From positions 11,275 to 75,274 of the forward strand of contig CAZFFN010000126.1 in the NCBI GenBank assembly GCA_964518165.1: DNA of 64,000 bases, written 5' to 3'. Both the position numbers and the translations under genes were made by a program. The notes beneath the pieces were generated by a model. The model was not told the origin of the DNA and did no database searches. It saw only the letters and a program-made list of their open reading frames with translations. Shown piece by piece: positions 8,501 through 34,223 of this stretch (position 1 is its first letter; each line of letters begins with the position of its first letter). This DNA is from an uncultured Thermoplasmatales archaeon. Lineage in GTDB: Archaea; Thermoplasmatota; E2; DHVEG-1.

Positions 8501-8998
8501 AATTTTACTTGAGATACTATACGGGTCATCTCCATTTATGGATGTAGTTTTTTTAGCTTTCCAACTATTATCAATTTCTTTTTCATCTACATTTATAAGG
8601 GTCATCTGATCCATTTTTCCATTACAATAACTCATCCAGTCTTTCATAAAATAATCTAGACCCTGTCTAGAATTTAAAGTAACTTCTTTTTCTTTATTTG
8701 AAGTAAACTTATCTTGATAAAATAATAGTGGATTTGAATAAAGAGTATTGTCCTTTTTAAAAACAGATGTTGGAACTGATGCTAAGTACGCATAATCATC
8801 AAGATAGCTTTCTTTATCAAAATTGACAAAAGTTGCTTTTTTTAAGGGCTGTACATTTGTATAAGATGGACCTTTCATAAAACCAGGATCTTTTTGAATT
8901 TTTTCACTAGATACAAATGGACTAAAAACAGACGTCAAAAATAAACAAACAGTTAATAATATCATAACTTTTTTAATTTTTTCAAATTTTGCTTTCAT
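5531..8998 (-). CDS. Large secreted, C-terminally membrane-anchored surface protein (paralog A) with CWB2-like motifs and a conserved C-terminal domain of unknown function
   Basis: 1155 aa with an N-terminal signal peptide (MKAKFEKIKKVMILLTVCLFLTSVFSPFVSS) and a C-terminal TM plus basic tail (FIIAIFIVIIILILVLIFPRRKK). Motifs: DYAYLASVPTSVF...SNPLLF, GDSLASATNGAVLASSLNAPLLYT...LFKLGVKDIYLVN, GPAAFVAAHHGTPVLIVD, IMWIHAAHGHH, SMGF..C, DPWxTSWY, WWWD, HGHMPFG. A GGGGGT RBS is upstream. Confidence 0.8.
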   Translation of the reverse strand: MKAKFEKIKKVMILLTVCLFLTSVFSPFVSSEKIQKDPGFMKGPSYTNVQPLKKATFVNFDKESYLDDYAYLASVPTSVFKKDNTLYSNPLLFYQDKFTSNKEKEVTLNSRQGLDYFMKDWMSYCNGKMDQMTLINVDEKEIDNSWKAKKTTSINGDDPYSISSKIALNEWSYSDKAVVSVVEKDFETPNIETKNTIKRTLPASSIHEIETFNLEQTNSLNPIYHTFDIPEGYKFLYADCWWDGLLIGDRIMMPTGDPDMQIYCKDEQGWLQTTAVSAWNVYQPAGHEPAHAYIYKPGKWRIGVTDMPTEGDADYVRKNIIGNLLQLQGTVGGMIKPGVTYHVDVTMYPGIDIKIPDQTPFGCRDVEIKLKWDNPNVDLGFTLVGPSGEAIYTAFEENEEETHQKVKIHSLGECKNDEHYSVSVFSKNDIDSPLDFEIEYSWEQNISKVEGDSLASATNGAVLASSLNAPLLYTSSEKLSDKTKEALFKLGVKDIYLVNFCDHISKDVFNNLEEIANIKENFIKIENIFDSIRKISGSNDIVFSTIDPWTFWYKEELTPADETEAGLFIGPAAFVAAHHGTPVLIVDMHPELSCAVTYHNTLWEHFSHDRYGGTPSSGEMVFTGRRVYDFLDKHNFDKEGDENIITVADQFDIGASWDRVFIGVANTGRFAGSPVDSAYWISRNMFYPALIFENPALSEDKTYVTGSTSKRQGILGLLKNPIGSTLVIDTPEQMVKAENPVMCSFVTQKYRFNERASKYYGAKYECADGLVPGESVTNEPIDMGSIEKHTGKKGAYFPDMSETEMVPFYLERGGYNPVYSTQFEKVMDNINNGCIMWIHAAHGHHTAGGETEFWDPETKSGNLFNLLVGPAKQLNPKFGYDWYLGSTEEPDTMTMDIKGIIPFTNHNSLFFPPTGFDYALARKPIREKINKILFPNKENIPFEVENLYDGVTGSLSFSRKTTDMKNASVLDEGLDNLYSMGFITNICQTAYTQLQLSLIRHGSVFQIQDPWATSWYATVWRETIPRDLALGYTIGEAFARGIQHVGILYLGGGEDGNPQWWWDDKESVIYFGDPELRPYVPSTEYSDNNYWEKEDTKPVEYDEEFDINGHMPFGPTGYPNKVKQQSFLEKNMFIIAIFIVIIILILVLIFPRRKK

Positions 8999-9114: not shown

Positions 9115-12100
9115 TTATTTTTTACGACCCATAGCAACTAATACTAACAACAAAATAAAAATAATTACTATAATCGCTATTAACCAAATAGGTATTATTG
9201 GTTGGGGTTCTCTTTGGTTTGGATAATCTTTTGCACCAAATGGCATATGGCCATGTACTGAAAAATCTTCTTCTAAAATAGGTGATTCAACATCATCTAT
9301 TGTCCAATGGTTTTTTGATTCAGGATCCCATCTGCTCTCAGGTGCCCAAACACGTAAATCAGGATCACCAAAGAAAACAACGTTTTCATTTAAATCCCAC
9401 CACCATTGATCGACTAAGTACTGCATTCCAACTTCTGCCATACCTTGTTCATATGCTTCACCAATAGTATGGCCAAGAGCTATTTGACGCGGAATGGAAT
9501 GTAACCATATACCACTATACCATGATGTACTCCATGGGTCAAGTATCTGATAGCTAGTTCCATGCCTAATCATAACTTGATGTAAATATGTATATGCAAT
9601 AAGGCAAGAAACAGCATTAAAGCCCATGCTGTGAAGATTATCGAGATCCTCATCAAAATTAAGGCCGTTATATCCTGTTATTACATTTTCTCCACCGGCT
9701 AGAGGATCAATTACAACACCGTCTCCATATGCCCTGTAAGACCTTCCTATTATTGGTAAAAGACTCAGACCATTTGATTCCTTGATATGTAGATCAACTG
9801 GGAATGCATCAACTAGAAGTGATGGTTTAACCTGTGGATTCATTACTGCAACATCTGGATCTTCTGTGCTTCCTTTATCAACTGATATTAGATCAAGGGG
9901 TGTGCTTGCATAACTTGCTAATTTTAGTAAAAATGAAAAAGATGGTAGACCTGCTTTACTAAGCATATGTGGAAGGTGATTTAGAAATTCTTTGAATGTA
10001 CCTCTAGAAATTAAGGGACGTTCGTATGCTCTCCACGGATTTTCTTCATATACATAAGGGCTTTCGGGATCCCAGAAACTCAGAGTTCCGTAGTTACCAT
10101 TTCCTCCATGACAGCTTTCCATCCACATTATAGTTCCTTTATTAAGATTCTCAATTGCTTTTTCATATTGGGTTGAAAAAACGTTACTATAGCCTGCTTG
10201 TTGCCCATAAAACGGAGTGGCATATGTTTCATGAAGATCTGGGACATATGCTGCTGTTTTTCCTTCTACAGCACCCTGATCTATTGGATGCTTTGAAACT
10301 GTTTCATAGGGAATAATACCATTAGCTGTTGTGTATTTTCCACCCCAGTGTTTTTCTGCAGCTATCTCATTGAATTTATATAAATAAACATTATAGGTGT
10401 GTAACAATGGATATTTGTAGTTTTCTTCCATTTGTTCTTTTGTAATTACTAGATCAGTACCAATCGGATTCACAAGTTTACCCAATATTGGAACAACCTT
10501 ACTTGAACTTCCATTAACTAAATCAACTCCAGAAGGATCTAATGCAGGGTTTTCAAATATTAAAGCCGGATAGAAAACACTTCTTGATATCCAGTAACTG
10601 ATATCAACAGGTGTACTTGAAAATCTTCCTGGTATGAGTCTTCCTGTAAATGTTCTATCCCATGTTGAACCGATATCAAATTGATCAGCTACAGTAATCA
10701 TTGTAGAAAGGCCCTCTTTTGATTTTGAAAGATCATAATCATATGATTCAAGGAATTTTAATACATTTCTACCAGTCAAAACCATACTTGCAACTGACGG
10801 CAGATGAGGTCTAAATGATGCGTTTGCAGTATTTCTCCAAAATTCATTATGCCAGACAACCGCTTGAGATAGTTCAGGATGGTTATCAACTATTAAAACA
10901 GGTGCTCCATGATGAGCTGCTATAAAAGCTGCTGGTCCAAAAAAGTAAGCACCAGGATATTCACCAACGGGAACTGGATATAATGAATAATAATATGTCC
11001 ATGGATCAATTGTTGAAAAAACCACATCATCACTATTTGTATTTGATTTTATTTTATTGTATAATTCTAGGTAATCCGTGTATTCAGTAATTTTTGCAAT
11101 ATTTTTAATTTCATTTTTTACATCATTTTCTAAATAATTACCAACATTTAAAAGATGTATTTTTTTAACACCCAGTTTGTATAAGGCATCTTTTGTATCT
11201 TCCGGGATTTCATTGTTTTTAATATACAATAGAGGGGCATTTATATTACTAGCAAGAACTGCCCCATTTGTTGCAGAAGCTAGATTATCGCCTTTTTCTC
11301 TTGAAATATCTTTTTTCCACGAGTATTCTATTGTAAAATCAATTTCTTGATCCACATCTTCTAAAGCAAAAACACCTATCTTGTATCTTTCATCATCCTT
11401 TGTTTCACCAAGTTTTTCCAAATGTATCGTTCTCTCAGTAATCCCTTTTTCAACACCTTCTATAATTTCCTCATTAGAGGGCGTGGATGCTGTTTCTGCT
11501 CCAGTTGGATCAAGTACAAAGAAACCAAGTGGAACATTTGAGTTATCCCAATTTAAAGTGATTTCAACATCTCTACAGCCATAAGGAGTTGGATCTAAAA
11601 TTTCTTGTTCTATACCTGGGAATAAAGTAACTTCTACAGGTCGTGTATCACCTTTTTTAATTCCCATTTTTTTCAAAAGAGAATTGTCTTCTTCTACATT
11701 TTGATACATGCTTTCCATTTTTCCTTCTGGTGCTTTCTGAGTAGGCATATAAGTAACTCCTACCTCCCAGGTTCCATGGTTATAAACGTAAGAACTAGCT
11801 GTTTCTCCAGCCCCATAAAAAATATTCCATTTTGAATCTGCATCAGCCATACCAAGCTGGCTATCATATAATTGCAGATCAAGATCTATTGCAACGTTAT
11901 CCCAGAACATATGAGCAATAACATATTTGTAAGGCTCATTTATTTCAAAGGCTTTATAGCTCCCACCAACTCCAATTTCAGGGGTAGGAACATCTAAATT
12001 TATTGTATCTATTTTGTATCCCGATGGAATACTTCCTTTTAATTCTCCACTAAATGACTCTTTAGGTTTATCATATCCGTCTTTAACAATAGCAAGAACT

Positions 12101-12627
12101 GCTTCATCAGAATATGACCATTCTTTTTTAGCCAACTCACTTGATAGTTTGTAAGGATTAGAATAATCATAAGTATTGATTTTTTTTGCATCATATTTTT
12201 CTTCTAGTTCATTTTCAGCCATGCCAATTAAATTAAGTTCATCTAATTTTTCATCGCAATATCCCATCCAGTCATCCATAAAATATTCTACACCTTCTGA
12301 GGCATCTTGAATTTTATATTTGAGTTCATCTCCAAATTCATCTTTATCTTGATAGAAAATTAATGGATGAGAATATAGTTTATCATTATGATTAAAAACA
12401 GCAGTTGGAACACTTGCTAAATAAGCCAAATCATCAACAAGTTTTTCTTTGTTAAACTTAACTAAGCTTGTCTTTTTTAGAGGAACTACTTCTTCATAAG
12501 AAGCACCTTGTGTAAAGCCTTTTATATTTTCTAAATTTCCTGCATTTGCCATTGGTACAAAAATACTTGTTAAAAATATACATACAACTAATATTGATAT
12601 TAAATTTTTATCTATTTTCGCTTTCAT
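9115..12627 (-). CDS. Large secreted, C-terminally membrane-anchored surface protein (paralog B of 5531..8998)
   Basis: 1170 aa with the same architecture and motif set (YLASVPTAVF, GDNLASATNGAVLASNINAPLLY, GPAAFIAAHHGAPVLIVD, IMWMESCHGGNG, SMGFNAVSC, DPWSTSWY, WWWD, HGHMPFG). Signal peptide at the N-terminus, TM plus GRKK at the C-terminus, and a GGGGGT RBS. Confidence 0.8.
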   Translation of the reverse strand: MKAKIDKNLISILVVCIFLTSIFVPMANAGNLENIKGFTQGASYEEVVPLKKTSLVKFNKEKLVDDLAYLASVPTAVFNHNDKLYSHPLIFYQDKDEFGDELKYKIQDASEGVEYFMDDWMGYCDEKLDELNLIGMAENELEEKYDAKKINTYDYSNPYKLSSELAKKEWSYSDEAVLAIVKDGYDKPKESFSGELKGSIPSGYKIDTINLDVPTPEIGVGGSYKAFEINEPYKYVIAHMFWDNVAIDLDLQLYDSQLGMADADSKWNIFYGAGETASSYVYNHGTWEVGVTYMPTQKAPEGKMESMYQNVEEDNSLLKKMGIKKGDTRPVEVTLFPGIEQEILDPTPYGCRDVEITLNWDNSNVPLGFFVLDPTGAETASTPSNEEIIEGVEKGITERTIHLEKLGETKDDERYKIGVFALEDVDQEIDFTIEYSWKKDISREKGDNLASATNGAVLASNINAPLLYIKNNEIPEDTKDALYKLGVKKIHLLNVGNYLENDVKNEIKNIAKITEYTDYLELYNKIKSNTNSDDVVFSTIDPWTYYYSLYPVPVGEYPGAYFFGPAAFIAAHHGAPVLIVDNHPELSQAVVWHNEFWRNTANASFRPHLPSVASMVLTGRNVLKFLESYDYDLSKSKEGLSTMITVADQFDIGSTWDRTFTGRLIPGRFSSTPVDISYWISRSVFYPALIFENPALDPSGVDLVNGSSSKVVPILGKLVNPIGTDLVITKEQMEENYKYPLLHTYNVYLYKFNEIAAEKHWGGKYTTANGIIPYETVSKHPIDQGAVEGKTAAYVPDLHETYATPFYGQQAGYSNVFSTQYEKAIENLNKGTIMWMESCHGGNGNYGTLSFWDPESPYVYEENPWRAYERPLISRGTFKEFLNHLPHMLSKAGLPSFSFLLKLASYASTPLDLISVDKGSTEDPDVAVMNPQVKPSLLVDAFPVDLHIKESNGLSLLPIIGRSYRAYGDGVVIDPLAGGENVITGYNGLNFDEDLDNLHSMGFNAVSCLIAYTYLHQVMIRHGTSYQILDPWSTSWYSGIWLHSIPRQIALGHTIGEAYEQGMAEVGMQYLVDQWWWDLNENVVFFGDPDLRVWAPESRWDPESKNHWTIDDVESPILEEDFSVHGHMPFGAKDYPNQREPQPIIPIWLIAIIVIIFILLLVLVAMGRKK

Positions 12628-13901: not shown

Positions 13902-15926
13902 ATGATTAAAAATAATATTATGTTGTTTAAATCTATAAAAGCTAATCTTATCTTCTTTGTAATAATTTTATTGGTCATTCAATCATTATCAAGCTTTGCA
14001 ATCGGCATAAATACAAAAAATATACAGACCAAAGAAGAAAAAAGAAGTTCGTCATTAAAAAATAGTTTTATAATTGAGTTTAAGGATGAATCTATCTTAT
14101 CTTTTAGAGGAAAAATCAAAAATTTTTTATCAAATAGTAATATATTACAAGGAAATTTTTTAAAAGATAAAGTTGAACAATATAAATCAAAACTTGATTC
14201 AATGCATTTAAAGGCAAAGTTAGATATTCTTAATATCCTTGGATCAAGTTATACAATTAAAGATCTATTTACCCATGATTTTAAACTTTTTTCAAACTCT
14301 TTGGTAATAAAAAATATTCCAAATAATGTGATTGATTCTATAAAATCCTTAGATTATGTTAAAAATGTAAGAGTTCCAAAAAAAATAAAGATGCAATCTG
14401 ATCCTCTATCTTGGGGGGTAAGTAAGATAAATGCAGATCAAGTTTGGAACTTACATGATAATAAAGGTAGAAAAATAAATGGAGAAGGAATAAGTATCGC
14501 AATAATTGATACGGGTATTGATTATGATCACAGTCTATTAGGTGGAGGATTTGGACCAGGTTATACAGTTGTCGATGGAGATGATTTTGTTGAATATAAT
14601 AGATACGATGAAGAAAATGAAGTTTGGTATGAAAAGCTTCCAGAAGATGATCATGATCCAGATGACGAACAGGGACATGGTACACATTGTGCTGGAATAG
14701 CCTTAGGTGTTGCACCAGGTGCTTCACTTTATGCTTATCGTGTTCTAAATAAAGACGGCTGGGGAGATGAAAATTGGCTTCAAGAAGCTATAACTCGAGC
14801 AACTGATCCAAATGGGGATTTTGATATTTCAGATCATGTTGATATACTATCATTAAGTTTTGGAACAGTTAGCGAAGGAAAACCAGATGACAATATGAGC
14901 AAATGGGTCAATCAAGCGGTTGATTGCGGAGTAACAGTAGTTGCTGCAGCTGGAAATAATGGTTCTAATTATCATACAATTAGTTCACCAGGTTGTGCAG
15001 AAAAAGCAATAACTGTTGGAAATTCTAATTCTTATGATAGGGTAGATCCTAGTAGTTCAAGAGGCCCAACTTTGAATGGAAAAACTAAACCAGATCTAGT
15101 AGCACCCGGTATGCATATAGAAAGCACATGGTTAAATAACGGGTTTAAAACATTGTCAGGAACAAGTATGTCTACTCCTCATGTTGCTGGAGCTACTGCA
15201 CTTCTTTTGCAGTTGCATCCTGACTTTTCTCCAAATGATGTTAAAGAAACTCTAAAACAAAATGCTGTTAAATTATTTGCCCCAAATGGATCGATTTATG
15301 ATGAGTTTACTCAAGGCGCTGGAAGAATTGATATACTTAAATCAGTTAATCTATCAGAAGCACCACCAATTGCTGAATTAGAAATTTCAGAATATGTAAA
15401 AAAAGGTATAATAAATATAAATGGTACTGCTATGAATGGAACTGGAAATTCAAGTGATTTTACTAATTTTAGTTTGTACTATAAATACGATGAAGATTGG
15501 ATAGAACTATGTACAAAAACTCAAGAGATTGATGATTCATTAATGTATGAATGGGACACAACACATTTTGAAAAAGGTCTTTACAAACTGAAATTATTTG
15601 TAAGAAGTAAAGATCAGGCTAGTGTAGATATTAAAGAGATAAATATTGATTATGATGGTTTAATTATTGAGTGTAATGAAAGTTTCTTTGAAGATGAGGA
15701 GATTAAAGTAGATATTTTTAATGTAAATATGGAACCAGTAGATTGTTTTGTATTTTTTATTCCAAAGTTTCATCTCCCTCAAATTAGATACGGAAGTACA
15801 GTTCAATTTAGGGGACCAACCTTATATAATCCATTAAAACAGAATATTACTGGTAAAATTTTTGCAATTAAATTACTAAAATTTGAAACAAAAGGTAAAG
15901 AGATAGAGATAAAAAATATTGTTTAA
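13902..15926 (+). CDS. Secreted subtilisin-like serine protease (S8) with N-terminal propeptide and C-terminal extension
   Basis: Signal peptide, then IAIIDTGIDYDH (Asp), HGTHCAGIA (His), GTSMSTPHVAGATALL (Ser) and a catalytic Asn region. Confidence 0.9.
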   Translation: MIKNNIMLFKSIKANLIFFVIILLVIQSLSSFAIGINTKNIQTKEEKRSSSLKNSFIIEFKDESILSFRGKIKNFLSNSNILQGNFLKDKVEQYKSKLDSMHLKAKLDILNILGSSYTIKDLFTHDFKLFSNSLVIKNIPNNVIDSIKSLDYVKNVRVPKKIKMQSDPLSWGVSKINADQVWNLHDNKGRKINGEGISIAIIDTGIDYDHSLLGGGFGPGYTVVDGDDFVEYNRYDEENEVWYEKLPEDDHDPDDEQGHGTHCAGIALGVAPGASLYAYRVLNKDGWGDENWLQEAITRATDPNGDFDISDHVDILSLSFGTVSEGKPDDNMSKWVNQAVDCGVTVVAAAGNNGSNYHTISSPGCAEKAITVGNSNSYDRVDPSSSRGPTLNGKTKPDLVAPGMHIESTWLNNGFKTLSGTSMSTPHVAGATALLLQLHPDFSPNDVKETLKQNAVKLFAPNGSIYDEFTQGAGRIDILKSVNLSEAPPIAELEISEYVKKGIININGTAMNGTGNSSDFTNFSLYYKYDEDWIELCTKTQEIDDSLMYEWDTTHFEKGLYKLKLFVRSKDQASVDIKEINIDYDGLIIECNESFFEDEEIKVDIFNVNMEPVDCFVFFIPKFHLPQIRYGSTVQFRGPTLYNPLKQNITGKIFAIKLLKFETKGKEIEIKNIV

Positions 15927-18682: not shown

Positions 18683-19276
18683 TTATTTTACAGATTCATA
18701 TTTATGAGTGACATGTGAAAAAGATTCAGATCCTCCTTCACAGGAAACTGTCCAACCACAAAGTTCAACTTTTTCATCAATTACATCACCGGAATCATCA
18801 TAAGTATATACTGTTTTTAAATTAATTCTAGTTTTAATTTTTAGACTTCCTTTTAAAACAAGTTTTTCATCTTCAAAAATCAGTATATCTACCTGGTATG
18901 CATCATCAGATAACATTAATGGTATTTCAATTTCTTTTGTTGAATCTGCATTTATTTTTCCAACTAACACAGTATTTTTACAGTCAGCTACTTTATTACT
19001 TTCTTTTACAACATAGGCAACTATCTTTATTTTACCTGACTCTTTACTCCATATATTTGTAAGATAAGGCGTACAAGTTATATTTATTGTTGTGTTAGTT
19101 TCTTCAGTTTTCAATAAATATATTTCTTCAACAAATAGATGTTTTTCAGGTAATTGGGGTTCTGCTTCAACTGGTTTTTCAAATAGTATAGTAAATGCTC
19201 CAAATATTGCAATTAATGCTACTGCGATTGTTACTAGAAAGATACTAGCTTTTTTGAATTTTTTACTTACATTCAT
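18683..19276 (-). CDS. N-terminally membrane-anchored or secreted hypothetical protein
   Basis: A signal/anchor (IFLVTIAVALIAIFGAFTILF) is followed by a beta-rich extracellular region with 4 Cys. Confidence 0.5.
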   Translation of the reverse strand: MNVSKKFKKASIFLVTIAVALIAIFGAFTILFEKPVEAEPQLPEKHLFVEEIYLLKTEETNTTINITCTPYLTNIWSKESGKIKIVAYVVKESNKVADCKNTVLVGKINADSTKEIEIPLMLSDDAYQVDILIFEDEKLVLKGSLKIKTRINLKTVYTYDDSGDVIDEKVELCGWTVSCEGGSESFSHVTHKYESVK

Positions 19277-19393: not shown

Positions 19394-20170
19394 ATGACAA
19401 AAGTAACCCTTGATATGAGCAGTTTCAAAGCACTTGCTTCAGATACAAGATTAAATATTTTAAAGTCCTTAGATGGAAAAAAGATGAATCTAAAGGACAT
19501 ATCTAAAGAAACTGAACTAAACAAGGCAACTCTCCATGAACATCTAAATAAACTATCTGAAGCCGGGCTTGTAAAAAGAATTGAAAGAAAAGGCCATAAA
19601 TGGGTTTATTACAAACTTACCTGGAAAGGAGAAGGGCTACTTCATCCAGAAAACACTAGAATTGTAGTGCTTTTTTCTTTAACTTTTGTTGCTCTTGCAG
19701 CAGGAATAGTTCAATTTATTAGATATCTGACTGTGAAAGTTTCTAATACAATTCCAAGGAATCTTAATGACGTTGGTTATGGAATTAGAGAAGGAACTGA
19801 TACTCTATTTAAAAGTGCAAATGTAACTGATTCAAATAACGCCATATATATAGCAACCGATAGTGTTAATGAATCATTACCTGGAACAGTGGATTTATTT
19901 CTTTCTAGGGGATTTGCTAATTCAAACCAATCAATACTACCTTTTATAAAAGATAAAATCCCTTATAATTGGAATTTAACTACAAATCATACTGTTAATA
20001 CAACCACACCAAAAATAGATACTGGAGCAAATTTAGCTGCAGAACAAACAACTAATTTTACAAGCGATCCATTGTTGCTATATATTGCAATAGGATGTTT
20101 CATTCTATTTGCATCTATCTTATGCATTTCAATTTGGAGATACAAAAAGAACAAAACTCCAAAACTCTAA
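19394..20170 (+). CDS. Membrane-embedded ArsR/SmtB-type winged-helix transcription regulator (HTH-TM-extracellular NxS/T-rich region-TM)
   Basis: The N-terminal FKALASDTRLNILKSLDGKKMNLKDISKETELNKATLHEHLNKLSEAGLV is an ArsR-family HTH. A TM helix follows, then an approximately 120-aa N/T/S-rich segment with many N-x-S/T sequons, a C-terminal TM and a KKNK tail. Confidence 0.65.
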   Translation: MTKVTLDMSSFKALASDTRLNILKSLDGKKMNLKDISKETELNKATLHEHLNKLSEAGLVKRIERKGHKWVYYKLTWKGEGLLHPENTRIVVLFSLTFVALAAGIVQFIRYLTVKVSNTIPRNLNDVGYGIREGTDTLFKSANVTDSNNAIYIATDSVNESLPGTVDLFLSRGFANSNQSILPFIKDKIPYNWNLTTNHTVNTTTPKIDTGANLAAEQTTNFTSDPLLLYIAIGCFILFASILCISIWRYKKNKTPKL

Positions 20171-20454: not shown

Positions 20455-22146
20455 GTGAGACATAAATTTTTTGATGTAAAAAAAGGTGTTTTTTTTGTAG
20501 TGAGTATATTGTTTTTGATGAATATTTTTATGCCGGTTACAAATAGCATAAAATTAAATTCAAGTTCAAATAATAAAGATTTTTCAATAATTATTCACAA
20601 AATATTTCAAGATGATGAAATTGATCCCTTTCCCCATTTAGAAGGCGGAGATTGGAAACTATCTATATATGTAAATGATGAAAAAAGAACTTTAGAATGC
20701 TCAGGGAAAGAAGTAATACTTGATAAAATACTTGTTTGGGAAGATATCATTCAAGAGAATATGAAATTTTTAGAGATAAGATTTGAACTTTTAGATTTAG
20801 ATTCTGGTGTTTGGCCTGATGAACATGATATTGCAGATATTAGCGCATATGCTGATGAAAACTATTATGATGGCAAATATGATGATACAGAAGATTTTGA
20901 AAATAATAGACCTGCTGTTTTTAAAAGATATTACAATCTTGTAAGCGAGAAATGGGAGGAAGTAGACAATAATAATGATTACTTACAAGAGGTGCAAGAA
21001 TCATATTTAACATGGTTTCTTACTAGTGGTAATTTTGATGGGAGTACTACAACAGATGAAAACGATGTTTCAATTTGGTTTGATATATCAATTGGGAACT
21101 CTGCTCCATTTCCACCAGAAACACCATCGGGGCCTACCTCTGGATGGGTAGATCAGATTTATTTGTACACTACAAAAACCAATGATCCAGATAATGATAA
21201 AATAAAATATGGATGGGATTGGGATGGAGATGATGAAATTGATCAAATAACTGATTTTTTTGACCCTTGGGAATCTGCTGATGTTTATCATGGATGGTCC
21301 ACTGGTAAAATCAACTATGTTAAAGTCTGTGCAATAGATGAAAAAGGTGCGGTAAGTGAATGGTCCAATGAATTAAAGGTAGAAATTAATGGACCATATG
21401 GCAAAAGTGGATTTGAACTTGAAGAATGGTCATTAGGAGAAATATATTGTGTATATCTTGATCATTATGAAACAACTGAACTATTAGATATATTAAGAGG
21501 CGGTGGAAATATTGTTACTGCCGCTGCAGGGTTGATTTCGGCTATTGCAACTGCTGCCGGGGTTCCACTAGACATAAGCATTTCTATTGCAATAGTAACT
21601 GGAATTTTGAGGCTTGGAGTTGAAGTTATCAACCTTATGGATAGAGGTATGGGTATTTATGTAAAAACGTATATTGTAATGCTTGAAGGTGTTCCACTTT
21701 CATATTTTTCAGTAATGTGGTCTCAGTCTTTAGGGGATGATGCGTGGAGTATACCTGATGGGAATCAAGCTCCAAATACACCTAATAAACCCATTGGCGA
21801 AATAAAATGTAAAAAGGGTAAATCGTATACTTTTACTAGTGTTTCTGATGATCCAAATGATGATAAAATTGCTTATGTTTTCGAATGGGGCGATGGAACC
21901 TATAGTTGTGTTGATTATAATAATTCAGGTGAATCAGTTAGTCAAAAACATAATTGGTCTGAAATAGGAGAATATAATATTCGAGTGAAAGCAATTGATA
22001 TTTATGGTTATGAAAGCAAGTGGTCTGAACCATTAAACATTGAAATTAATAAAAAGAGTAAGATCAAATTCTTTTTGAAATTAGAAAATTTTTATGAGGT
22101 ATTTAAAAATGTTTTTGGAAAAGAAATTTGTAGAGAGGTGATATAA
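20455..22146 (+). CDS. Secreted protein with two PKD-like modules (GTG start)
   Basis: GTG start with GGGGG 7 nt upstream. Signal peptide, two approximately 90-aa modules (DPDNDKIKYGWDWDGD...; DPNDDKIAYVFEWGDG...HNWSEIGEYNIRVKAIDIYGYESKWSEP), and an internal Gly/Ala-rich hydrophobic stretch. Confidence 0.7.
   Translation: MRHKFFDVKKGVFFVVSILFLMNIFMPVTNSIKLNSSSNNKDFSIIIHKIFQDDEIDPFPHLEGGDWKLSIYVNDEKRTLECSGKEVILDKILVWEDIIQENMKFLEIRFELLDLDSGVWPDEHDIADISAYADENYYDGKYDDTEDFENNRPAVFKRYYNLVSEKWEEVDNNNDYLQEVQESYLTWFLTSGNFDGSTTTDENDVSIWFDISIGNSAPFPPETPSGPTSGWVDQIYLYTTKTNDPDNDKIKYGWDWDGDDEIDQITDFFDPWESADVYHGWSTGKINYVKVCAIDEKGAVSEWSNELKVEINGPYGKSGFELEEWSLGEIYCVYLDHYETTELLDILRGGGNIVTAAAGLISAIATAAGVPLDISISIAIVTGILRLGVEVINLMDRGMGIYVKTYIVMLEGVPLSYFSVMWSQSLGDDAWSIPDGNQAPNTPNKPIGEIKCKKGKSYTFTSVSDDPNDDKIAYVFEWGDGTYSCVDYNNSGESVSQKHNWSEIGEYNIRVKAIDIYGYESKWSEPLNIEINKKSKIKFFLKLENFYEVFKNVFGKEICREVI
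21112..21390 (+). repeat. PKD-like protein module copy 1 (in gene 20455..22146)
   Basis: Protein-level repeat DP-x-x-D-x-I-x-Y-x-[WF]-[DE]-W-[GND]-D... ...V-[KR]-[VA]-[KC]-A-x-D-x-x-G-x-x-S-x-W-S. Confidence 0.6.
21766..22047 (+). repeat. PKD-like protein module copy 2 (in gene 20455..22146)
   Basis: Same motif set: YVFEWGDGTY ... NIRVKAIDIYGYESKWSEPLNI. Confidence 0.6.
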
Positions 22147-22176
22147 ATTAAAAAAAATTTTTTAATCATATTTTTA

Positions 22177-23721
22177 ATGATTTTTTGTTTGGTTGGGAGT
22201 ATATATGCTGGTGCAATAAAAATAGATAAAGAAAATAATGAAATTCTAAATAAAACAATTAATGCTAATTCTTCCTGGACTTTAATGATTTATTTGGATG
22301 GTGATAATAATCTTGAAAGCAGTGCAATAGATGATTTTTTAGAAATGTCTGCTGTAGGATCTACTGAAAATGTTAATATTGTAGTCCAGTTTGATAGGGT
22401 TGATGGGTATGATTACTCGTTTGGGGATTGGACTAGTTGTAAAAGATTCCATATTTTAAAAGATATGGTTCCAACTCCAGAAAATGCTATAATGGATATC
22501 GGGGAAGCAAATATGGGTGACCCTCAAGAACTTATAGATTTTGCAACCTGGTCAATGAGTAATTTTCCAGCTGAAAAATATTGTTTAATTCTTTGGGATC
22601 ATGGATCAGGTTGGAAACTATCTAATAAAAATGGGAGAAAAGATATTTGTGAAGATATTACTAATTATGATGTTCTAAAATTATATGAGTTAAAAAATGC
22701 TCTATCAGAGATTACATCTGATTCTTCATTTAAGATTGACTTACTAGGCTTTGATGCTTGTTTGATGGGTGAAATTGAAGTTGCTTACGAATTAAAAAAT
22801 TTTTGTAATTTCTTTACTGCTTCAGAAAATACAGAGCCTGCAGACGGATGGAATTATGAAGATTCTTTAGCTGATTTAATTGATAATTATGAAAACACAG
22901 ATGGTGAAAAACTTGGCGAATATTTTGTAACACATTATGAAGGGTATCAGATTACATTATCAACAATAGATGTTTCAAATTTGAATGCGTTAACAGATGC
23001 TATCAGTAATCTTGCTTCAGCTTTATCTTCTTCAGAATATATAGATAAAGTTCTAAATGTTTTTAGTAATGTTGAAAAATATATGGAATCTTGTGATATA
23101 TATCATTTTGCTCAGTTGATATCTGAAAATATTTATGATTATGCAATTCAACAATATTCTGAGGAGGTAAAAAATGAAATCGAATACACGGTTACTTCTG
23201 AAAAACATGATAGTTATAATGAAAATTCACATGGGCTTTCGATATATTTACCTGATTGTACATATGATCACGAATATGATAGTTTGGATTTTTCAACTAA
23301 TGGTTTGTGGGATGATTTTTTAATCTATATTTTTGAAGGTGCTACTTCAAGTAATCCACCAACTATACCCATTATAAATGGCATAAGTGAAGGAGAAGCA
23401 GGTACGACACATCGTTATACTTTTCAGTCATCTGATCCAGAAGGAGATGATATATATTATGTAATTGACTGGAATGATGGATCTCAACATGAAATAATTG
23501 GTCCAAAAGCAACAGGTGTTGAGATAGAAGCATATCATGTTTGGTATGACCAAGGAGGATATGTTTTACGAGCTAAAGCAGTTGATTCAAATGGAGCTGC
23601 TAGTTCATGGAGTACCTTTAATATAATGATGCCCAGGATAAAAAATAGTTTCAGAGATAGTTTGAAATTACCTTTCTTAAGAAATATATTTGAGATTTTT
23701 AATATTGGAGAGGATTTTTAA
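22177..23721 (+). CDS. Clostripain-family (C11, clan CD) cysteine peptidase with a C-terminal PKD-like module
   Basis: WTLMIYLDGDNNLE N-terminal motif, LILWDHGSGW (His-Gly) and LLGFDACLMG (Asp-Ala-Cys). The C-terminal module is DPEGDDIYYVIDWNDGS...YVLRAKAVDSNGAASSWS. Confidence 0.8.
   Translation: MIFCLVGSIYAGAIKIDKENNEILNKTINANSSWTLMIYLDGDNNLESSAIDDFLEMSAVGSTENVNIVVQFDRVDGYDYSFGDWTSCKRFHILKDMVPTPENAIMDIGEANMGDPQELIDFATWSMSNFPAEKYCLILWDHGSGWKLSNKNGRKDICEDITNYDVLKLYELKNALSEITSDSSFKIDLLGFDACLMGEIEVAYELKNFCNFFTASENTEPADGWNYEDSLADLIDNYENTDGEKLGEYFVTHYEGYQITLSTIDVSNLNALTDAISNLASALSSSEYIDKVLNVFSNVEKYMESCDIYHFAQLISENIYDYAIQQYSEEVKNEIEYTVTSEKHDSYNENSHGLSIYLPDCTYDHEYDSLDFSTNGLWDDFLIYIFEGATSSNPPTIPIINGISEGEAGTTHRYTFQSSDPEGDDIYYVIDWNDGSQHEIIGPKATGVEIEAYHVWYDQGGYVLRAKAVDSNGAASSWSTFNIMMPRIKNSFRDSLKLPFLRNIFEIFNIGEDF
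23350..23634 (+). repeat. PKD-like protein module (in C11 peptidase gene)
   Basis: YYVIDWNDGSQ ... YVLRAKAVDSNGAASSWSTFNI. Confidence 0.6.
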
Positions 23722-23723
23722 AA

Positions 23724-25865
23724 ATGTTAAAAAATAAATTTATTAGTTTATCAATTATTTTTTTATTTATTTTTTCTAGTTTTGCGGGTGCCATTTGTAT
23801 TAGTAACAAAAGCAATATAAAAAAAGAAAATGAAAGATATACTTCTCTTTCTAAAGGAATTGGCGGTTGGCACTCTGAAGAAAGTCTTCAGGTTGATGGT
23901 AAAAATTTTGAAGATGTCGAAAAGATTGGTGGTAATGGAGGCGGTTGGGAAAGCCCTTATGAAACAAATTCTATTAGAATATGGGCAGAGGAAAATCGTG
24001 TTAGAGCAAAATATCTTTTTGATATTGATGAAGGGCCAGTTAAATATTTAAAATATGATATTTTGTATAAAGATGTAGGATGGTTTTCAGATGGCCCTGA
24101 TGCATTAGTTTATAACTGGGATGATACTTGGGGTTCCTATTCAAATATTGGTGGAGCTGGTGAAGATAATGATAATTATGAATGGGAAACTCATACCTTT
24201 ACAACTAATTCAGATAAATATGTAAATAGTAAAGGAGAAATACTTGTTGGAGCACAAGCATATGATGATTCTTCAGTTTTTCACCAAGATGATTTAGCTA
24301 TAAAGATAATGAAAATTTCCTATAAAGCTGCAGATGAAGAAATTTTTAATGTTGAATATCAACCATATGATTCAAATGATGATGGTGCAAAAGATAGCAT
24401 TAAAGCTAAAATTGATGCGGATGTTGGAAATGATGGAGATGGAACTTCAGTTAATGTTAAAGCTATTTGTTATCTAAAAGATCCCTCCGGTAACATTATT
24501 GATTCAAATCAAAAAACATGGTTAATAACCGATCATCAAGTTGAATATGGAATAATTAATACAAGTTCGCTTGGCGGAAATAATGGAATGTATAGTTTAG
24601 AAATCAAGTTAATTGATGAATATGGAAATTTAGAAGATGAAACTTCTAAATCTATTTATCTTGTCCCCGATCCAAAAAGAACTGTTGATTTTTATGTATC
24701 ACCTATTGAAGGTGGGTCGATACTTCTTGAGCAAAGTACATACTATGATAATGAGTCAACGCTTCTATCAAATAAAGAATATGATATTTCAGCTTTATCA
24801 GAAGAATATTACGCGTTTGACAAATGGGAATGTACTGGTGGCGTTTCAGTTGAACATTACAATTCTAAAGATACAAAAATGACTGTAAACAATAATGGGA
24901 GTATAAAAGCAGTTTTTACATTTGAATTTAATACATTATACTTTTTTGTTCAACCAGACTTTTCAGGATATATTAAAGTTGAAGATAATGATTTTACTAA
25001 TAATTCAGGATGCTATATTGATTCTGGAAAATATTCTCTAGAAGCTGTATCAACTGATGATTCATACTATTTTTCCGAGTGGTATGTTGAAGGAGATATC
25101 AGTGTTGAAGATGAATATATTTCTCAAACAGTATTAGATGTGTTTGGTGATGGAATACTCTTAGCAATTTTCAATGAAAATAATCCGCCTAATAAACCAG
25201 AACTTCCTGACGGGGCTCTTTCCGGGGCAATATATGAAAGTTATTCTTATTCAACTAAAACAACTGACTCTAATAAAGATCAAATATATTATTTATTTGA
25301 CTGGAATGATGGCACAGATAGTGGCTGGCTTGGACCTTATGAATCCGATGAAAAATGTACTGCAGCTCATAGTTGGGGAGGGTCTAGAACGTATCAAGTG
25401 AGAGTAAAGGCTAAGGATAGTCATGGTTCAGAAAGTGAATGGTCTGATCCTATTTCGGTTGGAATTTTCAGCCCTCCTTCTTCTCCAAAAATAAAGGGTC
25501 CAACACATGGAGAAATCAAAAAAGAATATGATTTTACGTTTAGTTCTACGGATCCAGATAGCGATGATGTATATTTCTATATAGAATGGGGGGATAATAA
25601 CATTGAAGATTGGGTGGGCCCCTACAATTCTGGCGAAGAGGTAACAATATCACATTCATTTAGAAGAAAAGGCACTTTTACAATAAAAGCACTTGCAAAA
25701 GATGAAAACGAGGTTGTAAGCCAATCATGGGGGATGCTAGTTATTGATTGTCCAAAAACAAAAAAATATAATTTTAATTTTCTGGATTTTTTAATAGAAA
25801 AATCTATATTCATAAGATTGGTTGAAAAAATACAATTCCTATCTTTGTTTGATTTTTTAAATTGA
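23724..25865 (+). CDS. Secreted protein with Ig-like/InlB-B-like repeats and two C-terminal PKD-like modules
   Basis: Signal peptide MLKNKFISLSIIFLFIFSSFAGA. Modules are DSNKDQIYYLFDWNDGT...YQVRVKAKDSHGSESEWSDP and DPDSDDVYFYIEWGDNN...FTIKALAKDENEVVSQSW. It starts 3 nt after the upstream gene. Confidence 0.7.
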   Translation: MLKNKFISLSIIFLFIFSSFAGAICISNKSNIKKENERYTSLSKGIGGWHSEESLQVDGKNFEDVEKIGGNGGGWESPYETNSIRIWAEENRVRAKYLFDIDEGPVKYLKYDILYKDVGWFSDGPDALVYNWDDTWGSYSNIGGAGEDNDNYEWETHTFTTNSDKYVNSKGEILVGAQAYDDSSVFHQDDLAIKIMKISYKAADEEIFNVEYQPYDSNDDGAKDSIKAKIDADVGNDGDGTSVNVKAICYLKDPSGNIIDSNQKTWLITDHQVEYGIINTSSLGGNNGMYSLEIKLIDEYGNLEDETSKSIYLVPDPKRTVDFYVSPIEGGSILLEQSTYYDNESTLLSNKEYDISALSEEYYAFDKWECTGGVSVEHYNSKDTKMTVNNNGSIKAVFTFEFNTLYFFVQPDFSGYIKVEDNDFTNNSGCYIDSGKYSLEAVSTDDSYYFSEWYVEGDISVEDEYISQTVLDVFGDGILLAIFNENNPPNKPELPDGALSGAIYESYSYSTKTTDSNKDQIYYLFDWNDGTDSGWLGPYESDEKCTAAHSWGGSRTYQVRVKAKDSHGSESEWSDPISVGIFSPPSSPKIKGPTHGEIKKEYDFTFSSTDPDSDDVYFYIEWGDNNIEDWVGPYNSGEEVTISHSFRRKGTFTIKALAKDENEVVSQSWGMLVIDCPKTKKYNFNFLDFLIEKSIFIRLVEKIQFLSLFDFLN
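25179..25465 (+). repeat. PKD-like protein module copy 1 (in gene 23724..25865)
   Basis: YYLFDWNDGT ... YQVRVKAKDSHGSESEWSDPISV. Confidence 0.6.
25469..25750 (+). repeat. PKD-like protein module copy 2 (in gene 23724..25865)
   Basis: YFYIEWGDNN ... FTIKALAKDENEVVSQSWGML. Confidence 0.55.
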
Positions 25866-25988
25866 ACAAAAACAACCTAATTTTTTTATTTTTTTACTAT
25901 TTTTTCATGTAAATCCTACAAAAACCTAATAATATACCAAAAAACTTTTATAACAAGAAAAAAATATTATAGATTCAAAGTAATTTAT

Positions 25989-26101: not shown

Positions 26102-27037
26102 TTGAATAAAAAAGACAAACAGAAAATCGAATATAAAACAAAGTGTCCTGAATGCGGCAGTATAAACCTTGCAAAAAATTATAGTAGGGGTGAAATTGTT
26201 TGTGAAGATTGCGGTCTTGTGGTAACCGAAGACTTAGCAGATCATGGTCCAGAGTGGCGTGCTTTTGATAGTGAACAACATAAAAAGAAAGCAAGAGCAG
26301 GACCACCAATGAAATATACCATACATGATAAAGGATTAAGCACAGCTATAAGCTGGAAAAATAGAGATGCATATGGTAGATCAATCCCTACAAAAAACAG
26401 AGGGCAAATTTACAGACTTAGAAAATGGCAGAGAAGGACAAGAATAAGTAGCGCATCTGAAAGAAGTCTTGCTGAGGCTTTTTCTGTTCTAAGTAGAATT
26501 TCATCTAGAATGAATCTACCTAGAAGCATTAGAGAAAGAGCAGGAATGCTTTACAGGCAAGCAGCTAAAAAGAACTTAATTAGGGGTAGAAGTGTAGAAA
26601 TCGTAGTTGTAGCAACAATATATGCGGCCTGTAGGCTAGCAGGTATGCCAAGAACACTTGACGAGATTAGTAGTATAACCAGCATTTCTAGAAGAGATAT
26701 TGGTAGAACATATAGATTTGTAGTCAGAGAACTCAAGCTTAAAATGGCTGTTCCTTCACCACTTGATTATATTACTAGATTTATAGGGGATTTAAATCTC
26801 AGCCAGAAAGTAAAAAAGAAATCCGTAGATATTTTAAATCTAGCTATCGAAAAAGAATTAACTAGTGGTAGAGGCCCGGTTGGTGTTGCAGCTGCATCGA
26901 TATATATTGCTTCAGTTATATCTGGTGAAAGAAGAACTCAAAAAGAAATATCTGATGTAGCAAGAGTTACAGAAGTTACAATAAGAAACAGATACAAGGA
27001 ATTAGCTAGAAAACTGGACATACGAATGGAAATCTAA
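26102..27037 (+). CDS. tfb: Transcription initiation factor IIB (TFB), copy 1, TTG start
   Basis: 311 aa with a Zn ribbon (CPECGS...CEDCG), B-finger/linker and two cyclin folds. No in-frame ATG precedes the Zn ribbon. The TTG start makes its N-terminal length equal to TFB copy 2, and GAGGG lies 6 nt upstream. Confidence 0.85.
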
Positions 27038-30035: not shown

Positions 30036-30971
30036 ATGAAAAATAAAGAAATAAATTCAATAGAGGAAATAATTGAATGCCCTGAATGTAAAAGCGAAAA
30101 ACTTACAAAAGATTACAACAGAGCAGAAATTGTCTGTAACAGATGTGGCCTTGTTATAGACGAAAACTTAATAGATTACGGTCCAGAGTGGCGTGCTTTT
30201 GATAGCGAACAAAAACAAAAAAGAGCAAGAACAGGAATGCCAATGACACCATTAATGCATGATAAAGGACTTACAACCACAATAGATTGGAAAAATAGAG
30301 ACTTTTATGGAAGATCAATACCAAACAGAAATAGATCTAGAGTATATAGGCTAAGAAAATGGCAGAGAAGGCTTAGAACAAGCCAATACCAAGAACGAAA
30401 CCTAATGGAAGCACTAAGAAACCTTGATAGAATGTCTTCTTCCCTTGCACTTCCAAGATCGGTAAGGGAAAACTCAGCAATGATTTATAGAAAAGCAATG
30501 GATAAAAACCTAATTAGAGGTAGAAGCATAGATGGAGTAGTTGCTGCAACGATATATGCAGCATGTAGACAATGTAATGTTCCAAGAACACTTGATGAAA
30601 TAAGCCAAAAAACAGGGATAAAAAGAAAAGAAATTGGTAGAAACTATAGACATATAAATAAATCATTAAAACTAAACCTCAGACCAACTAAACCAAAACA
30701 ATACTTAACACGATTCTGTAACGATCTTGACTTAAGTTCAAAAACTAGAGCAAAAGCCGACAATATCCTAAAAAAAGCTACAAATAAAGAACTTGTAAGT
30801 GGCAGAGGACCAATAGGACTTGCTGCTGCATCATTATACATGGCATCTGTTTTATCAGGTGAAAAAAGAACCCAGAAAGAAATCGCAGAAACATCAGGTG
30901 TTACAGAAGTTACAATTAGAAATAGATACAAAGAACTAGCTGATAGATTAAGCATTAAAATTGCAGTATAA
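30036..30971 (+). CDS. tfb: Transcription initiation factor IIB (TFB), copy 2
   Basis: 311 aa, collinear with copy 1 (CPECKS...CNRCG Zn ribbon, GPEWRAFD, cyclin repeats). Confidence 0.9.
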
Positions 30972-32177: not shown

Positions 32178-34223
32178 TCAAAACAATTTTTTATTTTTGT
32201 ATATTTCCCTAAGTGGTATATAAAACACTAATACTGCAATGAATAACCACAAAATCAATGAAGGTAGTGTTGGTGGGATATCAAACATTACAAAATCAAG
32301 CCCCATAATAATTAAGAAAGCTACAACAACACCAGTTAAAGCTTCACCTGCAATTAAACCTGCTGTAAATAATAAACCAGTTCTTACAATTTTTTCTTTA
32401 GGTTTTACTTCTGTTTGTTTTATCGCAAGCTCCCACTCACTTGATTCCTCATCATCGCCATTACCAAAGTATTTTTTAATTTTTTTATCTGTTAAATAAC
32501 GTATTATTCCTCCAGCAAATATTGGTGTTGCAAGAGTAAATGGAAGATATATACCAATAGCAACTGGCAGAACAGGTATATCTATAAGAATTAAAACAAG
32601 TGCAAGAACTACCCCTGCTAAAACAAACGGCCATACCATATCTCCACCAAGAACGCCTCTAACTACACCATTCATTAGAAAAGCCTGTGGCGCAGGTAGA
32701 TTGATACTGCCGATTTCATATGCTTTATCAAGGGCTTGTACAACAAATGCAAGTACAGGTGCTGCTGCAAGTATCCCTATGAGTTCAGCGATCTGCTGCT
32801 TATAAGGCGTTGCACCAATCATTTGACCTGCAGTCATAGATTGAAGGACGTCCCCTGAAATTGCTGCACAGCAAGCAATTACTGCGGCTATAAGTAAAGC
32901 TATCCCAAATGCGGCTGTACTTCCACCAAGCCCCAGTCCAAAAAGAATTAAAGATGTTAAAAGTAGCACAGAAACTGTAACACCAGAAGTCGGATTGTTT
33001 GATGAGCCTACAAGACCTGCCATGTATCCAGCTATAGCACTAGCAATAAAAGCAAACAATATTGCAAAAATTGCCATTATTCCAGATATAAAATAATTAT
33101 TTGATATCCATACATAAACTAGAAAAACCGGTATTGTAAGTGCACCTATAGTTAAAAATACATATTTAAAATTAAGATCTTTATCAGTTCGTTTTTTTGT
33201 ATCTTTATGCCCACTTTTTATTCCTATTACTGCCTCTTTTATTCCATCTGCTAAGTTATGACGTAATTTAAATATTGTATATAGTCCACCTACAACCATT
33301 GCACCTACACCAATGTATCTAATGTAGTTACCCCATATCTCAAAAAAACCCCAGATTACTTTTCCAACCTCAAGATTTCCGCCTCCAAGAGAAATAGCAT
33401 CAGTAATTTGAGCTTCAGTGATAGGTGTTGGAATACCAGTTGCTAGTGATACGAGAGGAGCAATAATAACCCAACCAATAAGACCACCGACAAATACAAA
33501 CGATGATATTTTTGGCCCAATTATCCAACCGACACCAAGAAGTGCAGGTGAAGTTGCAATTCCGCCATATAACATTCCCTCATTGTTTTGGAGTCCAATA
33601 TTATATTTTCCTATACTAATAATTCCTTGTATTCTTCCAGCTAATGCATGAAGTCCTACCTGGGCATATTTTAATGAAGCACCTAATAAAGCTCCAATCA
33701 ATAACCAGACTGGTTTAACGCCTGATTCTCGTTTTTTCTTTGCTTTTTTTCCTCCAACTGTAGTTGTTAAAACAGCTGCGACTGCAACACCTTCAGGAAA
33801 AGGTAAATCAGTTTTAATTATAAGAGCACGTCTAAGTGAAACCATCCATAACACACCAAGTATGCCACCAAGTGCTGCAATAATAGTAGTTTCAAGATAA
33901 TGAATTTCAGTCCATGCGCCAAGTAGTACCATTGCTGGAATTGTAAATATTACACCAGCAGCAAGTGCCGTTCCTGCTGCGGCCCCCATCATACCAATGT
34001 TTACTTCTAAAATTGTTCCTTTTAATGGTTTTAGTAAAGCAAAAGCTAAAACTGCTCCAGGTATTGCTGCAGAAACTGTCATTCCTGCATATAATCCAAA
34101 GTAAGCATTAGCTGACCCTAGGACAATTGCTAAGAATGCTCCGACTAGCATTGCTTTTAGTGTTAATTCTGGCATTTCTACTTTTGCAGGTATAAATGAT
34201 TTAAAGTTTTCTCTGTCAAACAT
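32178..34223 (-). CDS. OPT-family oligopeptide transporter
   Basis: 681 aa polytopic protein with an OPT-family-like N-terminus (PELTLKAMLVGAFLAIVLGSANAYFGLYAGMTVSAAIPGAV). Confidence 0.75.
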   Translation of the reverse strand: MFDRENFKSFIPAKVEMPELTLKAMLVGAFLAIVLGSANAYFGLYAGMTVSAAIPGAVLAFALLKPLKGTILEVNIGMMGAAAGTALAAGVIFTIPAMVLLGAWTEIHYLETTIIAALGGILGVLWMVSLRRALIIKTDLPFPEGVAVAAVLTTTVGGKKAKKKRESGVKPVWLLIGALLGASLKYAQVGLHALAGRIQGIISIGKYNIGLQNNEGMLYGGIATSPALLGVGWIIGPKISSFVFVGGLIGWVIIAPLVSLATGIPTPITEAQITDAISLGGGNLEVGKVIWGFFEIWGNYIRYIGVGAMVVGGLYTIFKLRHNLADGIKEAVIGIKSGHKDTKKRTDKDLNFKYVFLTIGALTIPVFLVYVWISNNYFISGIMAIFAILFAFIASAIAGYMAGLVGSSNNPTSGVTVSVLLLTSLILFGLGLGGSTAAFGIALLIAAVIACCAAISGDVLQSMTAGQMIGATPYKQQIAELIGILAAAPVLAFVVQALDKAYEIGSINLPAPQAFLMNGVVRGVLGGDMVWPFVLAGVVLALVLILIDIPVLPVAIGIYLPFTLATPIFAGGIIRYLTDKKIKKYFGNGDDEESSEWELAIKQTEVKPKEKIVRTGLLFTAGLIAGEALTGVVVAFLIIMGLDFVMFDIPPTLPSLILWLFIAVLVFYIPLREIYKNKKLF

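Follow-up and report, generated by a model that had tools for sequence, protein, structure and literature searches.

The window analysed here is a 64,000-nt stretch of DNA from an uncultured Thermoplasmatales archaeon, and positions 20455-25865 of it hold three consecutive plus-strand genes, which we call p1, p2 and p3. We consider it probable that these genes form an operon-like cluster encoding a Sec-exported C11 endopeptidase and two exported, non-catalytic proteins, which together serve cell-associated extracellular proteolysis for peptide scavenging. The first gene, p1 (20455-22146), has a GTG start and encodes a predicted exported, non-catalytic protein of 563 aa with about 45 orthologues. 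The second, p2 (22147-23721), encodes the putatively exported C11 cysteine peptidase, with 524 aa from a probable ATT start at 22147 or 514 aa from the first ATG at 22177. The third, p3 (23724-25865), encodes a 713-aa, all-beta protein of binding type, also predicted to be exported, with 13 orthologues. AlphaFold2 (AF2) models of p1 and p3 had predicted local distance difference test (pLDDT) scores of 81 and 82, respectively.

In the mechanism that we favour, p2 would be an exported Arg/Lys-specific endopeptidase that cuts extracellular protein, and p1 would be its conserved accessory partner, carrying a putatively Ca-binding beta-sandwich and an orphan helical domain. p3 would act as a clade-specific binding protein, with a jelly roll resembling a carbohydrate-binding module (CBM), an Ig-like domain and InlB-type repeats. 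All three proteins finish with the C-terminal cassette that is standard in the secretome of this lineage, a PKD domain followed by an M-P-[KR]-x-[KR] junction and an amphipathic tail of about 27 aa, which most likely retains them at the cell surface or sorts them there. Besides the export of the three proteins, which is predicted from their sequences, we infer a physical or functional partnership between p1 and the C11 enzyme, surface tethering by the tail and a nutritional role of the cluster.

p2 encodes a C11 peptidase

The catalytic domain of p2 is located at 22264-23331 (+; aa 30-385 counted from ATG 22177) and matched Pfam Peptidase_C11 (PF03415) with 177.5 bits (cutoff 25.8; E=7e-52) over profile positions 2-356 of 359. 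It carries the motifs SWTLMIYLDGDNNLES, WDHGSGW and GFDACLMG, which an earlier note on this DNA had quoted when it called the middle protein a C11/clan CD cysteine peptidase. In the alignment with clostripain (PDB 9CIP), H142-G143 of p2 falls on H176, and D193-A194-C195 falls on D229-A-C231. H142 and C195 are invariant and D193 is nearly invariant in 24 full-length p2 orthologues. The profile score and the aligned catalytic His, catalytic Cys and S1 Asp bear out the assignment, and by its sequence p2 is a C11 family (clan CD) peptidase with an intact catalytic apparatus.

In C11 enzymes, Arg/Lys specificity is set by the S1 Asp, located two positions ahead of the catalytic Cys, and the enzymes self-activate when they are cut at basic residues a short distance past the catalytic His. 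K147 and R155-K156 of p2 align with R181 and R190 of clostripain, the Arg residues flanking its excised linker, and the R155-K156 pair is conserved across the 24 orthologues. The basic residues at the linker cleavage positions of clostripain lead us to expect Arg/Lys specificity and self-activation in p2. Specifically, p2 is predicted to be an Arg/Lys-specific endopeptidase and to activate itself by internal cleavage at K147 and R155-K156.

p2 shares PF03415 and the His-Gly and Asp-Ala-Cys elements with clostripain (Hathewaya/Clostridium histolyticum, 9CIP), PmC11 (3UWS/4YEC), 6N9J and 6MZO, and it also matches the basic residues at the internal linker cleavage positions of clostripain and the gut-bacterial C11 enzymes. 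Unlike those bacterial enzymes, p2 is archaeal, has a C-terminal PKD domain and tail, and is accompanied by a conserved partner gene, p1. p2 is not a clostripain orthologue, because it scored 78 bits against the NCBIfam clostripain equivalog TIGR02806 (cutoff 550), in an alignment that covers the N-terminal half only.

p1 is linked to C11 genes in several contexts

Conservation was followed with per-domain hidden Markov models (HMMs) on 109 fetched loci (L001-L109). A full-length p1 was found directly 5' of an orthologous C11 gene at L001-L006, L008, L027, L028, L030-L032 and L107, and directly 3' of one or two longer C11 genes at L007, L036, L037 and L047. These p1-C11 loci cover at least three unrelated flanking contexts. 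In the group with p1 in front, a broad syntenic neighbourhood (S8, GTPase, purD, PRT, DUF7490 and HTH genes) is shared in part; it is lacking at L008, at L107 and in the group with C11 in front. The p1-C11 linkage is widespread and occurs in both orders, though it is not universal. p1 was also found at L029, between C25 and C1 genes upstream and an S8 gene downstream, with no C11 gene in 12.4 kb of contig. Some genomes have duplicated C11 genes, or C11 genes with large fused extensions (L037, L047). Only about 30 orthologue clusters of the C11 + PKD + tail type were found, and the tail is spread over a wider range of proteins.

p3 orthologues were present only at L001, L002 and L005/L006, and the third gene was absent or different elsewhere (p3 is missing or replaced in L003, L008, L032, L107, L108 and L109). 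At L007, a C14 caspase-domain protein with a weak segment similar to the N-terminal domain of p3 (p3N) stands in its place. Of the three-gene module that had been proposed, the p1-C11 pair is conserved beyond close relatives, and the full triad is confined to the closest clade, where the flanking synteny is conserved as well (L002, L005/L006).

Two of these loci are peptidase islands. The island at L007:3728-15000 comprises, in order, a PKD protein, a long C11 protein, p1, the C14 protein with the p3N-like segment, an unknown protein and an S8 peptidase. The island at L029:240-8737 comprises a C25 peptidase, a C1-lectin protein, p1 and an S8 peptidase.

Domains of p1 and p3

p1 is composed of an N-terminal signal/anchor helix, a beta-sandwich (p1N), a PKD domain, a helical domain (p1M), a second PKD domain and a tail. 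p1N (20572-21096, +; aa 40-214) contains the invariant acidic motifs DIADIS and DGSTxxDEND and may bind Ca. The domain recurs behind the S8 catalytic domain at L063 and L086, and it is the N-terminal part of PKD proteins in Bathyarchaeota and Methanomassiliicoccales. No Pfam, NCBIfam or PDB sequence match was found for p1N, and a PDB profile search gave chance-level hits only (E>0.3).

p1M (21403-21768, +; aa 317-438) was modelled by AF2 as two beta-hairpins with three hydrophobic/amphipathic helices. An exhaustive search of 1.84 billion proteins returned only 8 cluster representatives of this orphan domain, all p1-like save one weak bacterial match and one probable low-complexity match. A membrane hairpin was considered for its hydrophobic helices and rejected, because AF2 packs the helices with the two beta-hairpins at pLDDT 83-93, and because the second helix has conserved R, E and D residues and relative P0214 has acidic helices here. 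A class of shorter p1 paralogues or orthologues (~425-460 aa; L009 and L038-L046, e.g. L009:6797-8137) stops right after p1M and lacks the second PKD domain and the tail. These short forms never adjoin a C11 gene at any of those loci.

The N-terminal domain of p3, p3N (23841-24335, +; aa 40-204), is a predicted beta-jelly-roll whose fold resembles that of CBMs. The following middle region (24336-25178, +) comprises an Ig-like domain (aa 205-318) and two InlB B-repeat-like domains (aa 319-485), as judged from AF2 strands; this region passed Pfam Flg_new_2 with 26.2 bits (cutoff 23.6). For p3N, no Pfam or NCBIfam assignment was obtained, and a PDB profile search stayed at chance level (E>0.3). 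The N-terminal domains of the two flanking proteins had been described as unassignable, and Pfam and NCBIfam searches indeed assigned none of p1N, p1M and p3N. The best reading of p3 is a clade-specific binding-type protein.

A lineage-typical PKD module is shared by the three proteins

A module of ~95 aa occurs in five copies over p1 (two), p2 (one) and p3 (two). In p1, the internal copy 1 (21097-21402, +; aa 215-316) is separated by the 122-aa p1M from copy 2 (21769-22050, +; aa 439-532), which is of the terminal type. The p2 copy (23347-23637, +; aa 391-487) matched PDB 4XED by sequence with E=8e-24, and the two p3 copies are at 25176-25751 (+; aa 485-582 and 579-676). 4XED, the closest PDB match of the module, is the PKD domain of a Thermoplasmatales M14 peptidase. 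An HMM built from the five copies found no further match in the six-frame translated window, and the 4XED PKD domain, as an independent query, recovered exactly the same five copies (E=2e-29 to 7e-5; next match E=1.3).

The copies are 26-37% identical to each other and 31-49% identical to 4XED. Because they are no closer mutually than to a PKD domain of a different protein in a different organism, the module is not a private tag that the three proteins came to share recently. Moreover, it also occurs on unrelated secreted proteins of Thermoplasmata type (NosD-like beta-helix, PQQ, C25, Y_Y_Y and M14 proteins), and PKD/tail is also found on C1 and S8 proteins, so it is not a tag reserved for these three proteins. 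Only the last p3 copy passed Pfam PKD models (PF00801 / PF18911; 27.9 bits against a PF00801 cutoff of 23.5), and the p1 and p2 copies reached 15-24 bits and so missed the cutoffs. In its fold the module is a true PKD domain, of a subtype typical of the lineage.

Compared with the PKD domains of other secreted hydrolases and surface proteins, such as collagenase ColH (4U7K) and an archaeal S-layer protein (1L0Q), the module is a lineage-specific subtype that mostly stays below Pfam thresholds and, unlike them, runs into a conserved M-P-[KR]-x-[KR] junction. The earlier note had described one module repeated in all three proteins, and this holds for the five copies. It had also placed the module at the end of each protein, but all three continue for 27-38 aa beyond it, and copy 1 of p1 is internal. 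Each half of the literal motif that it gave fits only two of the five copies, and the similarity holds at profile level. A private link of the three proteins through the module is not supported, as the domain is a generic PKD domain found across the lineage, which is one of the outcomes that the note had named as refuting its reading.

A small lipoprotein-like protein (…SIFSGC…) encoded elsewhere in the window (61975-62802, -) has a canonical PKD_4 domain (E=1e-8). This domain belongs to a different subtype and was missed by the five-copy profile.

A conserved junction and amphipathic tail follow the last PKD domain

Past their last PKD domain, p1, p2 and p3 each run on for 27-38 aa as an amphipathic tail rich in F, L and I. 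The p1 tail is located at 22051-22143 (+; NKKSKIKFFLKLENFYEVFKNVFGKEICREVI), with a low-confidence AF2 helix at 539-562; the p2 junction and tail are at 23629-23718 (+; MPRIKNSFRDSLKLPFLRNIFEIFNIGEDF), and those of p3 are at 25752-25862 (+; CPKTKKYNFNFLDFLIEKSIFIRLVEKIQFLSLFDFLN), where AF2 also rendered the tail as a low-confidence helix. The tail is preceded by a junction with the consensus [VI]-[TS]-M-P-[KR]-x-[KR], in which K or R occupies both marked positions in most of 81 aligned sequences. The median tail among these sequences is 27 aa long, and the tail consists to 44% of F, L and I with interspersed charges, often with FP…FP. Its helical hydrophobic moment is 0.3-0.57. The 4XED construct finishes with …VTMPK.

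In related archaea, secreted proteins of several other kinds (NosD-like beta-helix, PQQ, Y_Y_Y, C25 and M14 proteins) likewise finish with the junction and tail, as do a C1 papain-lectin protein and S8 subtilases that lack a PKD domain ahead of it. Such proteins are encoded at L029, L032, L053, L055, L057, L072 and L100. The fetched loci hold 682 open reading frames (ORFs) with a length of 200 aa or more; 37 of them have the tail at the C-terminus, versus 1 of 682 mid-protein control windows. No Pfam or NCBIfam model matched the tail, NCBIfam sorting-domain models gave no match at E<=1 for the three proteins or eight relatives, and nothing specific to the tail, the module or PDB 4XED turned up in searches of the literature. 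The tail is apparently previously undescribed.

The tail follows the logic of the PGF-CTERM/archaeosortase, LPXTG/sortase and type IX secretion system (T9SS) C-terminal domain (CTD)/PorU systems, in which unrelated secreted proteins carry an N-terminal signal peptide and a short conserved C-terminal element. Unlike those signals, it has no transmembrane helix, no terminal basic cluster (its charged residues are spread throughout), no folded CTD and no NCBIfam/Pfam match. Its membership in the archaeosortase, sortase or T9SS systems is not supported.

Two variants were seen among the relatives. P0026, P0031, P0176 and P0206 have a long, low-complexity tail rich in Q, S, N and P after the 'MP' junction (…MPMDLPGSQQSNP…) instead of the amphipathic tail, which may be an alternative C-terminal ending. 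P0177 contains an internal junction and tail copy (…SVSMPKNKKAPVIKHYQCFPLFNRLL…), after which come more domains and then another tail at the C-terminus, and looks like a fusion of two tail-bearing genes.

Gene starts and transcription unit

The ORF coordinates confirmed the three co-directional plus-strand genes reported before, with gaps of 30 nt between p1 and p2 (0 nt if p2 begins at ATT 22147) and 2 nt between p2 and p3. With ATG 22177 as the start, only a truncated signal peptide, MIFCLVGSIYAGA, is left on p2. The codon immediately 3' of the p1 stop (TAA), an ATT at 22147, is in frame and would extend the protein N-terminally by (M)KKNFLIIFL and yields (M)KKNFLIIFLMIFCLVGSIYAGA. The Shine-Dalgarno (SD)-like sequence GAGGTGAT lies 4 nt 5' of this ATT, and orthologues place an SD-like motif equally before ATGAAA or ATGAGA. 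The orthologues open with MKxK… and a complete signal peptide. Because they have the full signal peptide there and the SD-like motif at the matching position, p2 translation most likely begins at 22147, giving 524 aa. The ATT would then be a start codon of a rare type, an ATG altered by mutation or an error in base calling. Signal peptides had been claimed for all three proteins, and all three have one once the p2 start is moved to 22147.

A read-through fusion of p1 and p2, which share a reading frame and are parted by just one TAA, was rejected because all orthologues are separate genes, each with its own SD-like motif and ATG. Downstream, a series of T-runs (T7-A-T7-ACTA-T6; 25881-25905, +) lies 15 nt past the p3 stop codon and is a candidate archaeal termination site, in a genome that is AT-rich (G+C of the window about 30%). 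From this layout, the three genes look like one transcription unit. No RNA element was found by Rfam and tRNA scans of the region.

Genomic neighbourhood

The window is archaeal, as it contains TFB genes and purD, and the closest named relatives of p1 are in metagenome-assembled genomes (MAGs) labelled Thermoplasmata or Thermoplasmatales archaeon. The two TFB (TFIIB-type) paralogues (26102-27037 and 30036-30971) lie 3 kb apart, just 3' of the cluster.

Directly upstream of p1 and co-directional with it, an ArsR-type winged helix-turn-helix (wHTH) protein is encoded (19394-20170, +; Pfam HTH_5) that has two predicted membrane segments and could be a regulator, perhaps a membrane-tethered one. 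Its gene is syntenic in L002, L003, L005, L027, L031, L032 and L109 and absent from L007, L036, L037, L047, L107 and L108. A DUF7490 protein with an N-terminal anchor is encoded divergently from it (18683-19276, -), and close relatives keep the pair directly 5' of the cluster; conservation of the wHTH gene is limited to this close clade.

An OPT-family oligopeptide transporter (32178-34223, -) and an exported S8 subtilase (13902-15926, +) are encoded less than 7 kb from the cluster, consistent with peptide scavenging. Two paralogues of ~1160 aa are encoded side by side at 5531-8998 (-) and 9115-12627 (-). Both have a signal peptide and a transmembrane anchor at the C-terminus, where they finish in basic residues (…RRKK, …GRKK); Pfam gave no match, and they are possible S-layer or envelope proteins.

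Evaluation of the proposed role and its alternatives

Extracellular proteolysis for peptide scavenging is supported by the fusion of p1N to S8 domains, by the adjacency of p1 and C11 in several contexts and by the position of p1 among peptidases at L029. It is also supported by the occurrence of PKD and tail on C1, S8, C25, M14 and NosD-like proteins. The intact C11 residues, the signal peptides, the close gene spacing with the T-runs past p3 and the resemblance of the p3N fold to CBMs speak for it as well. In addition, it fits the OPT transporter and S8 peptidase in the window and the reports of C11 genes with predicted export in MAGs of MBG-D/Thermoprofundales and of clostripain-type activity measured in sediments (PMC6461988; PMC8485070). 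The predicted C11, C25 and other peptidases of those sediment Thermoplasmata, known from single-cell genomes and MAGs, come from the same class of organism as p2 and agree with it in peptidase family, predicted export and a proposed role in degrading detrital protein; 4XED is the PKD domain of one such peptidase. Those accounts list peptidase families, and the p1 partner, the p1-C11 pair and the C-terminal tail are not described there.

Several observations weigh against this role. At L034, p1 has no peptidase within 6 kb; at L108, a different PKD protein precedes C11; and at L109, C11 is found in the same synteny without p1. Among the closest loci, synteny extends far into the flanks, so much of their conserved gene order could stem from inheritance and not from selection. 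Additionally, Pfam, NCBIfam, PDB-profile and 1.84-billion-protein searches gave no recognisable function for the p1 domains, and p3N resembles CBMs at fold level only. The ATT at the p2 start could also reflect a damaged start codon and weak expression.

If the three genes were merely unrelated members of the secretome, brought together by descent and sharing nothing but a generic export/display cassette, the lineage-wide module and tail, PKD copies no more alike than they are to 4XED, the restriction of the full triad to loci with conserved flanking synteny and the loss of p1 beside C11 at L109 would all be expected. We regard such uncoupled neighbours as unlikely, since the p1-C11 adjacency survives inversion of the order and moves to unrelated contexts (L007, L036, L037, L047, L107), p1 stands beside peptidases again at L029, outside the C11 loci, and the genes are spaced by only 0-30 nt. 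Dedicated processing, in which the C11 enzyme matures itself, p1 and p3 at M-P-[KR]-x-[KR], removing the tail and releasing or activating p1 and p3, appears rather unlikely. The earlier suggestion of a protease with two substrates keeps some ground here because the junction, basic at both positions in most of the 81 sequences, suits an enzyme whose S1 Asp, D193, predicts Arg/Lys specificity; moreover, long, tail-bearing p1 usually adjoins C11, whereas the short form without the second PKD domain and tail never does. It is weakened because the junction is widespread, being found even on the protease: many proteins encoded elsewhere (S8, C1, C25 and NosD-like), including those at L029 with no C11 gene in the 12.4 kb, finish with this junction and tail, and p3 is dispensable in most relatives.

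PorU, legumain and GPI8 are clan CD peptidases that act as transpeptidases. As members of this clan can do so, the C11 enzyme with p1 might cleave the tail as a C-terminal sorting signal and attach cargo from the whole secretome to the surface, like PorU or sortase/archaeosortase. The candidate cargo has an N-terminal signal peptide and the C-terminal tail, the junction is basic and the C11 enzyme is itself tail-bearing, but we give this sorting machinery hardly any credence: only about 30 C11 + PKD + tail orthologue clusters face a wider spread of the tail, the tail lacks the transmembrane helix and terminal basic cluster of known sortase-type signals, and the duplication of C11 genes or their fusion to large extensions (L037, L047) is more typical of digestive enzymes. 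That the junction and tail are a new Thermoplasmata sorting/anchoring signal recognised and cleaved by C11 and p1, an archaeal counterpart of PorU/PorV or sortase, is likewise very improbable in our judgement.

Implications for sediment Thermoplasmata

A major part in breaking down buried protein is ascribed to sediment Thermoplasmata, and deep sediments show measurable clostripain-type activity. The protease encoded here is itself unremarkable. The locus gives handles on how peptidases are arranged and retained at the cell surface, namely the p1 partner, the p1N domain shared with archaeal subtilases and the lineage-wide tail. Among these, the tail is the most novel lead, and the p1 partner is also worth following. 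If the tail is a sorting or anchoring signal, it would help to predict the surface proteome of this uncultured group.

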